The position numbers and the translations under genes are program-made. From an uncultured Erysipelotrichaceae bacterium (GTDB lineage: Bacteria; Bacillota_I; Bacilli_A; RFN20; CAG-826): a stretch of 64,000 nt of DNA. The stretch spans positions 8,922 through 72,921 of the forward strand of contig CADAIJ010000006.1 in assembly GCA_902787955.1 (NCBI GenBank), in the 5' to 3' direction. This document shows, in pieces, positions 15,543 through 23,021 of the stretch; the stretch's first letter is position 1; every line of letters starts with the position of its first letter. The notes beneath the pieces were generated by a model. That model had not been told where the DNA came from and searched no databases. It saw only the letters and a program-made list of their open reading frames with translations.

Positions 15543-15574
15543 TGGAGCAGATGGCGGGAATCGAACCCGCATAA
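15543..15574 (-). pseudogene. Displaced 3' part of host tRNA-Gly(TCC) (att site)
   Basis: TTAT-GCGGG-TTCGATT-CCCGC-CATCTGC-TCCA; CATCTGC pairs perfectly with GCAGATG at 23021-23015. Confidence 0.9.
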
Positions 15575-15794
15575 CCACATATGGAACGCTAACAGTACGT
15601 AGTAAATATTATACTAATATTTAAACCCTATTACAATACTTGGAACTGTAATTATGTCTACAGTTCTTTTTAGTATGCACATATAAATATATACGCATAT
15701 ACGTGCGTACGCGTATTGTATGTCGTATTTTTAAAAAAAGACGGTTCAACAATCCATTGTCCCAGTTATCCGGGCAAAGGAGAACACGTATAAA

Positions 15795-16751
15795 ATGGAG
15801 ATTAAGAAGCTCATTGAGTCTTTTAAGCGTACTAAAATGGCTCAAACAACTGAAGAAACGCAAAGATTTTACAGAGATCACCTCAAATCCGTTGAAAAAT
15901 GGATTGATGATGTTGGTCTCAAAGATATCAACGATATTACCGCTGATATGGTCAATGATTTTATCATTGATTTAAAAAATGATGGATTATCTCAAAAAAC
16001 CATCAACAACCGACTCGGAATTATCAAGCAACTTATCAAGCTAAGATTGCTTCCTTACGAGTACACAAAAGAACAAAACTTCATCATGCAAGGAATTTTG
16101 GCACGTCCTACCGATCCAGAACATTATCCAGCACTTACCCGTGAACAATTCTCTCAATTTCTTAACTACGTTAAGAAGTTAGACGAGAACAAACCACAAG
16201 AACTTAAACGCAAGATTGCTTTCCTCTTGTTCATTGGTAGTGGTGCTCGTAATTCTGAAGTGCGAAATATCCGCTTACAGGACGTCGATTACGATCATAA
16301 GCGAATTATATTAAAACACACCAAAACGCACAGCCAACGCCACATTTTCCTCGATAAAAAGACTATTTTGCTTCTAGAGAAGCACATAGCAATCAATAAT
16401 CCAACAACTTACATTATCCAAAACGAAATGACCAAGGGTGTAATGTCCAGAACTATGGTTCAAAAATACTTCCTCGAAGCTACTTCTGAACTTGGATTTC
16501 ATGTCTGCACTCACATTCTCCGAGCCACCTTCATCACTATGATGATTGAAGATGGAACGAGCTTGGGTTCAGTAATGAAATTGGCTGGTCACAAACATCT
16601 CACAACCACTGAACGTTATCTTCATATGGTTGATGATAGAATCGCTGCTGAATATGAAAAACATAATCCTCTTGCTCAAATTGAGCAAGGCGATTGGATT
16701 CCAGCTGAACGTATTAGCAAATCTTCTGATAATGTTCTTCTGGACGCATAA
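15795..16751 (+). CDS. Tyrosine integrase/recombinase
   Basis: SGARNSE, HILRATF, AGHK...TTERY; next to the att site. Confidence 0.92.
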   Translation: MEIKKLIESFKRTKMAQTTEETQRFYRDHLKSVEKWIDDVGLKDINDITADMVNDFIIDLKNDGLSQKTINNRLGIIKQLIKLRLLPYEYTKEQNFIMQGILARPTDPEHYPALTREQFSQFLNYVKKLDENKPQELKRKIAFLLFIGSGARNSEVRNIRLQDVDYDHKRIILKHTKTHSQRHIFLDKKTILLLEKHIAINNPTTYIIQNEMTKGVMSRTMVQKYFLEATSELGFHVCTHILRATFITMMIEDGTSLGSVMKLAGHKHLTTTERYLHMVDDRIAAEYEKHNPLAQIEQGDWIPAERISKSSDNVLLDA

Positions 16752-16787
16752 AAAAAGAGTAATCCTTAAGTGGATTGCTCCTTTTCT
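16751..16787. terminator. Probable bidirectional terminator
   Basis: AAAAAA-GAGTAATCC-ttaagt-GGATTGCTC-CTTTT between convergent genes. Confidence 0.65.
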
Positions 16788-16791
16788 CTGC

Positions 16792-17352
16792 TTAATTTTC
16801 TTCGTCATAATCTCCGCTAGTGAAATCAGGAAGACCTAATACAGATAGTGGAATCTCATTAAAGTAATAATCGCAACCTACATCTTTAATGTATTTTAAC
16901 ACATCTCTATATTCTGGCTTCTTAAACCAATCACAGAGGAGATATATGTATTTAATCTTGTAATCTATGCTTGCAAACAGCCTTTCGTATTGACGACGTT
17001 TAAAGTCGCAAGTTTGCAATTTTTCGTCAACAGAGCCAGCAGATGACTGGAATTTCTTTTCAATTACATACACTGTCTTATCTCTATAATTAACGAAACA
17101 ATCGTCTGGTAGCATGCGTTTTGAGAGGATATCACGCCAATCAACACCTAGTGGTTCTAGGAAGTCTTTGTATAGGTGCATTTTTTGAACTAATTTACCT
17201 ACATTTTCCTTTCCGAAGTATATTAAATTGGTAGGAGTTAAAATGAAACCAGCTTCCATTAATGCGTCAGCTAAAGTTGTCTCTTGTTCAAAACCAAGAC
17301 CATTGATATTGGTCTGATTCCCTCCTCCAACAGTATTCTTCTTTCTAGGCAT
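16792..17352 (-). CDS. Putative PD-(D/E)xK restriction endonuclease
   Basis: LPDD...VIEKKFQ...GSVDEK; translationally coupled to two methylases. Confidence 0.75.
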   Translation of the reverse strand: MPRKKNTVGGGNQTNINGLGFEQETTLADALMEAGFILTPTNLIYFGKENVGKLVQKMHLYKDFLEPLGVDWRDILSKRMLPDDCFVNYRDKTVYVIEKKFQSSAGSVDEKLQTCDFKRRQYERLFASIDYKIKYIYLLCDWFKKPEYRDVLKYIKDVGCDYYFNEIPLSVLGLPDFTSGDYDEEN

Positions 17353-18155
17353 TACTTGTCTTCCTTGTACCTACGCTTTGTTAACTCTAAATATTCTACC
17401 ACATTATCTATTCCGATATAACTTCTATTAAGCCTATGAGCAACGATACCAGTTGTTCCAGAACCATTAAAAGGATCTAATATAAGATCTCCTTCTTTAG
17501 AAGCTGCGGTAATTAATCTTTCTAATAAAGCCAAAGGCTTTTGTGTTGGATGTTTTCCTTGTTTTTTCTCTCTTTTTGAGGCTGTGGAGGACTCAAAAAA
17601 TTCTGGATCAGGAATTTCCCAAACGTCCTTCATTTGCTTGCCTCCGTTCTCTTTTTTCATCTCTTCATAATTGAAGTAGTGCTTGCCTTTTTTCTTTAAT
17701 GTGAGCTGTTTTCTCGCCCATATAATCGTTTCTGTTGAGTGAGTGAAACATCTGCAAGCAAGATTTGGAGCGGGATTGGTTTTTCTCCATATGATATTGT
17801 TAATTATTGAAAACCCTTCCATCTCTAAAGCAACACCGATAGCATATACGCTATGCAATGTAGCACTTATCATTATAGTTCCATTATCCTTAAGGATATT
17901 ACGACATAATGCAATCCATTTTCTGTGATATAACAATTTCTCGTCTATGCTTTTGGAATAGTCCCATTCGCCTTTATTGACCGAGACTTGCTTCCCCCCT
18001 GAACAACTTAAACCACCGCTGGAAAGAAAATAAGGGGGATCAGCAAAAATCATATCAACTGATTTCGGCTCAATCTTTTTAAGTATCTTGAAAGAATCTC
18101 CGTTGAGCAACGTAAAATTGTTTTCTTGGAAGTATATATTTTTCTTTGTGTACAT
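17352..18155 (-). CDS. Beta-class DNA amino-methyltransferase (DpnA-like)
   Basis: IFADPPYF precedes HPTQKP and DPFNGSGTTG. Confidence 0.88.
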   Translation of the reverse strand: MYTKKNIYFQENNFTLLNGDSFKILKKIEPKSVDMIFADPPYFLSSGGLSCSGGKQVSVNKGEWDYSKSIDEKLLYHRKWIALCRNILKDNGTIMISATLHSVYAIGVALEMEGFSIINNIIWRKTNPAPNLACRCFTHSTETIIWARKQLTLKKKGKHYFNYEEMKKENGGKQMKDVWEIPDPEFFESSTASKREKKQGKHPTQKPLALLERLITAASKEGDLILDPFNGSGTTGIVAHRLNRSYIGIDNVVEYLELTKRRYKEDK

Positions 18156-18156
18156 C

Positions 18157-21643: not shown

Positions 21644-21717
21644 ATACTATCTCCTTTATTACTAAAGTAATAATATACATTTTCACTTTTGTGTTTGGCA
21701 AATGATATAATTGTGGT

Positions 21718-22302
21718 ATGGATTTTAGTGAATTTGATACCCCAATTCCAAATAGCCAACTTATTAAGTGGATACGCTTACCTCGTTTTGAAGCTGAATT
21801 AAAAGAACTAGGAGTAAGCTTTGCTTATGCTGACGATACAATGCTTGAAGCAGGTCTAGTAGTTGGTGGTGAAAAGGGAGTCTATGAACAATACGCTCTA
21901 GAGGTTTATAACCTTTGTAAAAGCGATTTAGCTTTAGCTAATCACGATTTATATGAAAGATTTCTAAAATTAGTTCCATACATTAATGATCCAAGAAAAT
22001 TTAATGGTGAATACCATTATAAGGGTGAAGGCACTTATGATGATTTTCAAAATTCTCCTAAGAAAAAACAAATGCTAACTGAATTAGGAGATTTTGCATA
22101 TCATTTCGGTACTTATGTTTTTGATGCATTTGGTATTCCTTATGGATTTATTTCATACGTGTGGAATAAAGATTTTTACAGATTAAGACTTAGTTATACT
22201 GATTTCAATACAGAGAAGAATTGTTTAAGTGAAGAAATTATATTTTACTTATTAGTAAAAACTGATGAAATAATGAGTTCATATGGTTTTTATCTGAAAT
22301 AA
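21718..22302 (+). CDS. Hypothetical protein
   Basis: 194-aa ORF with TGnTATAAT 6 nt upstream of the ATG. Confidence 0.65.
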   Translation: MDFSEFDTPIPNSQLIKWIRLPRFEAELKELGVSFAYADDTMLEAGLVVGGEKGVYEQYALEVYNLCKSDLALANHDLYERFLKLVPYINDPRKFNGEYHYKGEGTYDDFQNSPKKKQMLTELGDFAYHFGTYVFDAFGIPYGFISYVWNKDFYRLRLSYTDFNTEKNCLSEEIIFYLLVKTDEIMSSYGFYLK

Positions 22303-22744
22303 TCTCGCGTGTGCGTATGTACACGCGATTTTATATTTGTTTTAAAATTTGTAATATTTGTTTAATTATTTTTAAATAATTATGATATTTGTTTTTATTA
22401 TTTCTATTATTATCTTAATTATTATTAATAATTAGTTATAATTATCAAAAATAGAGGAAGATAACAAAGAAAAAGAGACGGAAATAGAAAGAACCAGGTA
22501 AGAAAGAAAATTAGACACGGCGTCCCGTTTCCTTCTTTGGAAACTAAAGGAAGAAAAGCGGAGAACGTCGGATATCAATATTCATCGTCATATAATTTGT
22601 TGTTACTAGTGTTAATGTCAATTTTTTATTAAAAATAAAATATCTATAATTAAGTATAAAAAAGTATAAAAAAAGTTTTGGTTGAGATTTACCCCTCTAT
22701 ATTTTTTATATAGAATATAACTCGGATTGTTAATCCAGAGACAT

Positions 22745-22778
22745 AAAAAAACACCCCAATGGATCAGATTGGAGTGTT
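22745..22778 (-). terminator. Terminator downstream of the island-borne tRNA-Gly
   Basis: AACACTCCAAT-7nt-ATTGGGGTGTT plus T run on the - strand. Confidence 0.7.
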
Positions 22779-22818
22779 ATTACAGTTGCAACGAATAGGG
22801 TTACAACTTTCTCACAAA

Positions 22819-22892
22819 TGGAGCAGGCGACGAGAATCGAACTCGCGTAGTCTGCTTGGAAGGCAGATGTACTACCATTGTACTACGCCTGC
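22819..22892 (-). tRNA. tRNA-Gly(TCC), intact, inside the island
   Basis: GCAGGCG...TCTGC-CTTCCAA-GCAGA...GTTCGATT...CGCCTGC-TCCA, 74 nt. Confidence 0.95.
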
Positions 22893-22947
22893 ATATAAGG
22901 ATAAACCTTATATACCTTATGGTTTGTGCTTAGCAGTTTAGTTTTCT

Positions 22948-23021
22948 TTAGCGGTTGACCGGGAATCGGACCCGTATAATTAGCTTGGAAGGCTAATGTT
23001 CTACCACTGAACTACATCTGC
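22948..23021 (-). pseudogene. Disrupted host tRNA-Gly(TCC): intact 5' part fused to a degenerate 3' end (att site)
   Basis: D and anticodon arms are perfect; T-loop reads TCCGATT, acceptor stem mismatched, no CCA. Confidence 0.85.

Follow-up and report, generated by a model that had tools for sequence, protein, structure and literature searches.

Genomic islands and prophages of the classical tRNA-integrating type are said, in the work of Reiter et al. of 1989 and under the sublocation classes of Williams of 2002, to restore the 3' terminus of the gene into which they insert. A mode that dispenses with this repair, tRNA-dependent lysogeny, has been proven by genetics in actinobacteriophages (Guerrero-Bustamante and Hatfull, 2024, PMC10865867), among them Fionnbharth, LeBron, Cain and Gaia. 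The defining traits given there are a tyrosine integrase and an attB within a single-copy tRNA gene; the core is short (about 8-17 bp), the gene is not rebuilt, and a phage tRNA of the same isotype is needed for viable integration (PMC10865867). The same paper calls the evolutionary relation of the repair and replacement modes unclear. Prophage Lj965 of Lactobacillus johnsonii is described as a likely case outside the actinobacteriophages (PMC10865867; PMC3714127), and a similar case in Mesorhizobium-phage-like prophages is mentioned in PMC12429752. Here we describe an island of about 7.4 kb (about 15570-22974) in a stretch of 64,000 nucleotides, the window, from an uncultured Erysipelotrichaceae bacterium (assembly GCA_902787955.1, contig CADAIJ010000006.1, positions 8,922 to 72,921). 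The island is probably a non-phage integrative element that breaks the only detectable host gene for tRNA-Gly(UCC) and brings a whole tRNA of its own, a case of tRNA-dependent integration.

The window lies on contig C6 of the source draft assembly (G000; 14 contigs, 94% completeness) and was compared with the genomes of relatives (G021, G329, G480, G413, G020, G498 and G382) and with two metagenome loci (L035 and L036); from sequencing runs, contigs and not raw reads were compared. Genes for tRNAs were called with ARAGORN and their integrity was scored with Infernal, for which the Rfam threshold is 29 bits. Minimum free energy (MFE) folds are only indicative for tRNAs, and the promoter and terminator calls come from a simple consensus scan that identifies promoter-like and terminator-like sites only. 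At the right end of the island ARAGORN places three neighbouring tRNA genes, all on the minus strand, while at the left end the reverse complement of 15543-15570, 28 nt in length, gives a tRNA T arm with an acceptor 3' strand and CCA, and next to these on the tRNA strand come a hairpin and a T run. In the direction in which the tRNA genes are read, the features of both ends are as follows.

23115..23143, minus strand: promoter-like site of the host, upstream of tRNA-Asp (TTGCAA, 16 nt, TATTAT with TG), from the consensus scan
23025..23101, minus strand: host tRNA-Asp(GTC), called by ARAGORN, 59.4 bits in Infernal
22950..23021, minus strand: hybrid tRNA-Gly(TCC) of 72 nt, called by ARAGORN
22975..23021, minus strand: host-derived 5' part of tRNA-Gly(TCC), positions 1-49, the same as in the G021 gene by sequence comparison
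22970..22974, minus strand: right copy of the putative crossover core CGGGT (tRNA positions 50-54), placed by comparison with the empty site of G021 and the copy in G329
22947..22969, minus strand: element-supplied 3' arm with C55, a bulged T stem, the acceptor 3' strand CAACCGC with two mismatches, U73, and AAA replacing CCA
22893..22949, minus strand: spacer of 57 nt from the ARAGORN end of the hybrid to the element tRNA
22819..22892, minus strand: element-borne intact tRNA-Gly(TCC) of 74 nt with CCA encoded, called by ARAGORN, 71.1 bits in Infernal
22750..22778, minus strand: hairpin with T run that resembles an intrinsic terminator and follows the element tRNA, from the scan, kept in G329, L036 and G480
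15570..15600, minus strand: attP left arm, GTTAGCGTTCCATATGTGGTTATG, a decayed remnant similar to the anticodon arm of a tRNA
15565..15569, minus strand: left copy of the putative crossover core CGGGT
15543..15564, minus strand: displaced 3' terminus of the host tRNA-Gly(TCC), comprising the T loop, the 3' strand of the T stem, that of the acceptor stem, and CCA
15501..15530, minus strand: terminator hairpin with T run belonging to the host's original tRNA operon, kept at the G021 empty site, read from the sequence

That the island splits a host tRNA-Gly(TCC) gene, as a preliminary description of this DNA had proposed, is borne out by the closest relative, G021, which belongs to the same genus. 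The left flank is 95% and the right flank 97% identical to its DNA, both matches overlap on one contig, and the order there is trx, tRNA-Asp, one intact tRNA-Gly(TCC), terminator and HAD hydrolase, without the island and without a second Gly gene. Since the flanks abut in G021 in this way, the insertion is real and not a chance resemblance. A single Gly gene stands at the Asp-Gly locus in all 13 genus relatives whose locus was fetched, and the gene that the island carries at 22819-22892 is lacking at this locus in G021 and in 13/13 of these relatives. Its presence in island-free relatives, which had been named beforehand as a refutation of gene replacement, is thus not observed.

Rejoining the two halves had been described as yielding a perfect 74-nt cloverleaf. 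The split tRNA is real, but the rejoined molecule is chimeric at position 49. In the stretch ...TTATACGGGTTCGATTCCCGCC... the G021 gene places A49 opposite C65, and both this tRNA and the right junction of the window read TTATACGGGT (A49), whereas the left window junction and both junctions of G329 read TTATGCGGGT (G49); the A49.C65 mismatch, which the original host tRNA accordingly had, occurs in seven of the 13 genus relatives and G49.U65 in the other six. The crossover at the shared ATAA/TTAT that was first put forward was rejected, as TTAT costs two extra substitutions; because a crossover in CGGGT needs no extra change, the alignment makes this core in the T stem (15565-15569 / 22970-22974) the more likely point of exchange. 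The common core is exact over CGGGT in the G000 copy and matches at 18/20 over the wider repeat. The reconstructed attP, composed of the left arm given above, the core CGGGT and the right arm CCGATTCCCGGTCAACCGCTAAA, looks like the part of a tRNA-Gly between anticodon stem and discriminator in a decayed state, and the degenerate tRNA-like sequence noticed earlier inside the left end (GTTAGCGTTCCAT) is indeed present in all four element copies with a left end or attP, the G480 remnant being more diverged. Joints that skip 7411 nt (15570 to 22982) were rejected as evidence of excision in this strain, given six unlike letters, 25-nt sides and runs of small share, and are taken to be intact tRNA-Gly genes from other organisms. 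In another metagenome (run X2) one contig connects 22948, at the island's right end, with 15555, in the region of the tRNA 3' fragment, across 10 other letters; with little of the contig visible, this joint could be an attP or a tandem junction of a G329-like copy. None of the sequencing runs listed for the stretch is an RNA run.

The gene left at the right junction, although called by ARAGORN and Rfam, is probably a pseudogene to judge from its predicted structure. Infernal gives the intact G021 gene 71.7 bits with a full cloverleaf and the island tRNAs 71.1 bits (G000) and 71.4 bits (G329). The G000 hybrid scores 55.1 bits, with 3:70 and 5:68 as non-canonical pairs, a single base inserted into the T stem and C55 at a position where U55 is near-universal in tRNAs, and the G329 hybrid scores 48.0 bits in a local match of positions 6-65 only and is not called by ARAGORN. 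MFE predictions leave both hybrids without an acceptor stem and fold the intact host gene as a cloverleaf. The hybrid is also the sole tRNA gene without an encoded CCA among the 43 in G000. The supplied 3' end was thus fairly described as degenerate with respect to C55, the two acceptor mismatches and the missing CCA, but it is less random than had been supposed, since with a 1-nt insertion five of the seven acceptor pairs and U73 still align in Infernal. Because the 3' arm of attP mismatches the acceptor stem of the host, the junction gene appears crippled.

The preliminary description had also placed inside the island an intact tRNA gene with the same anticodon, a different sequence and its own terminator, and this gene is found at 22892..22819, 57 nt downstream of the hybrid (by the ARAGORN end of the latter), differing in sequence from the host gene and followed by the terminator-like hairpin at 22750..22778. 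On the tRNA strand within 22600-23250 the scan returns a sole promoter-like site, upstream of tRNA-Asp, and a sole terminator-like site, directly after the island tRNA; no site of either type was detected by this simple consensus scan in the spacer 22893..22949. The layout agrees with the earlier suggestion that the island tRNA is positioned for transcription from the promoter of the host tRNA-Asp, the site concerned being a predicted one. The island tRNAs of G000 and G329 differ by a compensated pair, A3:T70 in the former versus G3:C70 in the latter, which argues for selection on the structure of this tRNA. In its 3' third it has exactly the sequence of host tRNA-Gly genes from a different genus of the family (G498 and G382). 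The T stem of the island tRNA reads CGAGT where the core reads CGGGT, and an interpretation of this difference as a designed self-immunity was rejected, the same T stem occurring in three of seven fetched host tRNA-Gly genes of the family; the difference would be natural variation, with shielding from the island's own integrase a possibility.

Genome-wide, ARAGORN lists 43 tRNA genes on the 14 contigs of G000, including Gly-CCC, Gly-GCC and only two TCC genes, the hybrid and the gene at 22819-22892, with no other Gly-TCC gene in this draft. An 11-nt anticodon-arm pattern was used to count Gly-TCC genes in the genus relatives; its third match in G000 (C7:183931) sits in a coding region and is not a tRNA. 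At least one match was seen in every one of the 36 genus relatives, and two in ten of them, nine of the ten second matches not being tRNAs, so that 35 of the 36 have one Gly-TCC gene by this pattern, always at the trx-linked locus. The exception is G413, with a real second Gly-TCC gene in a cluster of seven tRNA genes (L042, G413:C52:2432-3442: Val, Gln, Cys, Trp, Gly-TCC, Ser, Leu). The Gly gene of this cluster has no encoded CCA, in contrast to G000, where CCA is encoded in 42 of 43 tRNA genes, and the cluster may be phage-borne or a contamination (the genome has 6% contamination). The trx-linked tRNA-Gly(TCC) of G020 (L052, G020:C21:1-3000) has the acceptor stem GCAGGCG and, unlike most of the genus, no adjoining tRNA-Asp; acceptor stems of tRNA-Gly(TCC) therefore vary within one genus. 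The codon GGA accounts for 26% of the Gly codons in 660 long open reading frames (ORFs) of G000, and from decoding rules the host tRNA-Gly(TCC) would be expected to be essential.

A second copy of the island is found in another genus. Of 401 genomes sampled in the order, only G000 and G329 contain the integrase family, their integrases being 97% identical, and G329 DNA matches the island at 93-95% except in the region of the restriction-modification (R-M) cargo, which is unmatched. The right junction of G329 consists of the 5' part of the host tRNA (GCAAGTG...), the same foreign arm (GTCAACCATTAAG), the spacer and an intact tRNA-Gly(TCC), the left junction of the host 3' end (...CACTTGCTCCA) and host terminator, and no tRNA-Asp lies upstream. 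The split halves are thus host-specific, GCAAGTG...CACTTGC in G329 versus GCAGATG...CATCTGC in G000, while the degenerate arm is shared. As the same non-matching arm occurs in two hosts, it predates the integrations and was unable to repair before the element moved; judged by these two copies, the failure to repair is a property of the element and not the result of later decay. A DNA search of G329 with both Gly types found besides the locus only Gly-CCC and Gly-GCC, and of the 44 tRNA matches in this genome five further ones, four measuring 71-72 nt and one 74 nt, proved to be Thr, Trp, Ile and Gln genes and a fragment that ARAGORN does not call. The earlier proposal that the gene is replaced rather than repaired is accordingly supported along several lines: the empty-site relatives, the G329 copy, the compensated 3:70 pair, the single Gly-TCC gene, the layout of promoter and terminator, and the shared arm.

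Related elements exist that do repair. In the metagenome contig L036 (1-8622), which encodes an integrase 61% identical to that of the island, the first 763 nt equal the last 763 nt at 100%, and the contig therefore represents a circle of 7,859 bp or a tandem. The att region of L036 joins the same left arm to a good tRNA 3' end with CCA (GCGGGTTCGATTCCCGTCACTTGCTCCA) and has no whole tRNA. At the place of the Dam/N6 methylase module of the window, L036 carries as cargo a C5 cytosine methylase and a 368-aa gene of no assigned family. A remnant of 2 kb without integrase in G480 (L085, G480:C74:23400-25886) has an intact tRNA-Gly(TCC) on the side of trx, and at the far side the 3' end of this tRNA is repeated perfectly over 35 bp. 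The only ORF that this remnant carries is one of 396 aa with an N-terminal hydrophobic segment and of no assigned family. A third locus, L035, has an integrase 76% identical to that of the island and its left junction alone is visible. An attP that restores the 3' end is thus present in L036 and G480 and absent in G000 and G329. When the four right ends are aligned, the island tRNA of G000 and G329 matches the tRNA rebuilt in G480 and, in the attP of L036, the half-tRNA, the latter aligning with the 3' half of the whole tRNA, and the downstream hairpin and terminator are common to all four, while the replacement-mode copies have about 129 extra nt upstream, made up of the foreign arm, the spacer and the 5' two-thirds of the tRNA. 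This difference would have arisen either by capture of a rebuilt tRNA together with a new upstream core or, in the opposite direction, by a T-arm deletion that turned a replacer into a repairer. We raise as a tentative, and on balance doubtful, suggestion that this single integrase family with both modes, differing by a segment of about 129 nt, represents a structural intermediate toward tRNA-dependent integration, the whole-tRNA mode paying off across genera. If true, it would offer a direct structural intermediate for how tRNA-dependent integration arises, the capture corresponding to excision at an upstream tRNA-like core and the reverse to a deletion between two T arms.

The remaining features of the island are its protein-coding genes, listed here from the right end to the left.

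21718..22302, plus strand: backbone ORF of 194 aa with no family match
20912..21643, minus strand: DprA-like protein (DNA_processg_A)
19882..20900, minus strand: three small backbone ORFs (140, 95 and 91 aa), kept in L036
19073..19759, minus strand: serine recombinase (resolvase/invertase)
16792..18981, minus strand: cargo, a putative type II restriction-modification module of three genes
18157-18981, minus strand: Dam-type D12 methylase of this module
17352-18155, minus strand: N6/N4 methylase of this module
16792-17352, minus strand: weak PD-(D/E)XK nuclease match of this module
15795..16751, plus strand: tyrosine integrase of 318 aa

The integrase matches PF00589 at 1.3e-24, has SAM-like N-terminal domains and corresponds to the phrog_1 integrase. 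The D12 and N6/N4 adenine methylases beside a small nuclease-like gene resemble two-methylase type II systems such as DpnII. A family scan of the island proteins, eight of which were compared with PHROGs, showed no virion, lysis or repressor genes, and PHROGs gave matches only for the integrase and invertase, for one family of unknown function and, as a small C-terminal match, for a RecE-like protein. In viral contigs no relatives of the integrase were found; a tblastn search against phage records gave 97 records, all below 60% identity, the ten listed being at 23-28%, and the 16 matches of a 16-nt junction pattern in viral contigs were all chance, none lying in a tRNA or element context. Homologues of the integrase are few, with 11 proteins at E <= 1e-10; a scan of assembled-genome contigs with the integrase matched only the G329 contig, and a scan of metagenomes gave two useful loci and the irrelevant L037 (29% over 76 residues). 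An alternating purine-pyrimidine run (TATACGCATATACGTGCGTACGCGTAT and variants) lies at 15660-15740 of the window, between attP and the start of the integrase gene. It is kept in all copies (L028 at about 1290-1340, L035 at about 300-340, L036 at about 1480-1520, L085 at about 24170-24200 and about 25520-25560) and lies near both ends of the G480 remnant; these runs may be candidate arm-type integrase sites or an int promoter.

With classical tRNA-integrating elements the island shares an integrase adjoining one att site, a crossover in the tRNA gene's 3' half and a displaced 3' fragment at the far junction. It differs from them in that the duplicated 3' end leaves the gene of G000 and G329 unrestored, L036 and G480 behaving classically. 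The likeness to tRNA-dependent lysogeny extends to the tyrosine integrase, an attB overlapping the T arm in one of the host's tRNA genes, the short core and the intact element tRNA, and also to the existence of reconstituting relatives, Cain/Ximenita and Gaia/Omega in the phages compared with G000/G329 versus L036/G480 here (PMC10865867). The carrier differs, however, as it is a non-phage 7.4-kb restriction-modification island to which the term lysogeny does not apply, and so does the host, an uncultured low-GC gut bacterium known here from sequence alone and not an actinobacterium (PMC10865867). In Table 2 of that paper only reconstituting phages use tRNA-Gly(TCC), the target of the island (PMC10865867). 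The island tRNA, moreover, lies 57 nt from the junction in a host tRNA transcription unit, while that of Fionnbharth lies elsewhere, overlapping gene 37 and having a demonstrated promoter of its own (PMC10865867). Lj965 is described as a prophage with four tRNA genes and not a mini-island (PMC10865867; PMC3714127). A non-exhaustive search of the literature on tRNA-dependent lysogeny and genomic islands found no report of tRNA-dependent integration by non-phage islands. The principle is thus published, and what is new is the non-phage restriction-modification carrier, the host group, the tRNA-Gly(UCC) target, the placement of the tRNA in cis and the homologous relatives that repair or replace.

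Several observations weigh against reading the island as an element that breaks the host gene and supplies its own. At 55 bits the G000 hybrid stands well over the Rfam threshold, and it keeps five of seven acceptor pairs, G1:C72, C2:G71 and U73; a gene of the CCA-adding-enzyme family is present in G000, and some residual function of the hybrid may persist. A hybrid that still works, perhaps less well, would make the island tRNA a redundant passenger acquired from a former host by aberrant excision, and the identity of its 3' third with host tRNA-Gly genes of G498 and G382 fits capture from a host. We regard this as unlikely, as the same arm gives in G329 a hybrid with essentially no acceptor stem, for which ARAGORN makes no call and Infernal a local one only, in G000 C55 stands at the place of the near-universal U55, the MFE prediction misfolds both hybrids, and the island tRNA is kept intact in both copies with a compensatory change. 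TATATA and TATATT motifs are furthermore visible in the spacer, where the simple scan could overlook a promoter, the 401 genomes yielded only two replacement-mode copies, and the R-M part of one of them, that of G329, is unmatched.

ARAGORN lists no Ile, Thr-TGT or Leu-TAG gene in the G000 draft, so that some tRNA genes are unassembled and a second Gly-TCC gene is conceivable, and G413 has such a gene in its seven-tRNA cluster. A further, unassembled host tRNA-Gly(UCC) gene would make the split gene dispensable and the question of repair or replacement immaterial. Against this stand the one trx-linked Gly-TCC gene of 35 of the 36 genus relatives and the lack of any other in G329, as judged by the search with both Gly types and by the five further matches of 44 described above, and we consider a hidden gene quite improbable. 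An assembly or binning artefact of a metagenome-assembled genome is very improbable indeed: G000 is a draft, and the one sequencing run with the whole stretch may be its source and thus offers no independent support, but the independent assembly G329 has the same right and left junctions and the flanks are collinear with the empty site of G021.

If, as we think most probable, the island breaks the host gene and brings a whole tRNA, its integrase would recombine attP, which is tRNA-like but decayed, with the single tRNA-Gly(UCC) gene of the host at the T arm, and the 3' arm of attP, unmatched to the host acceptor stem, would leave a crippled and presumably non-functional junction gene. Integration would at the same time place the island tRNA within the host tRNA-Asp/Gly transcription unit, ahead of the island terminator, where it would be co-transcribed with the host genes and could take over the decoding of GGA, leaving the host dependent on it. 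A crossover in the T arm means that the acceptor 3' strand comes from the element; a repairing element must therefore match the acceptor stem of its host and a whole-tRNA element need not. The acceptor stems of the hosts seen differ (GCAGATG, GCAAGTG, GCAGGTG and GCAGGCG), and an element with a whole tRNA might thereby enter genera with differing stems, which would provide a rationale for its host range.

Proof of this mechanism has so far come from actinobacteriophages; these observations extend it to a very small non-viral island of uncultured gut Firmicutes, whose tRNA sets are minimal, and suggest that breaking the tRNA gene and bringing one's own is a general option for integrative elements beyond phages. 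The paired relatives that repair and replace provide a handle on the relationship between the two modes that PMC10865867 leaves open. When such genomes are annotated, their intact Gly-UCC gene is to be treated as mobile DNA. To its host, an island with the sole tRNA for GGA and a restriction-modification system would be hard to lose except by precise excision.

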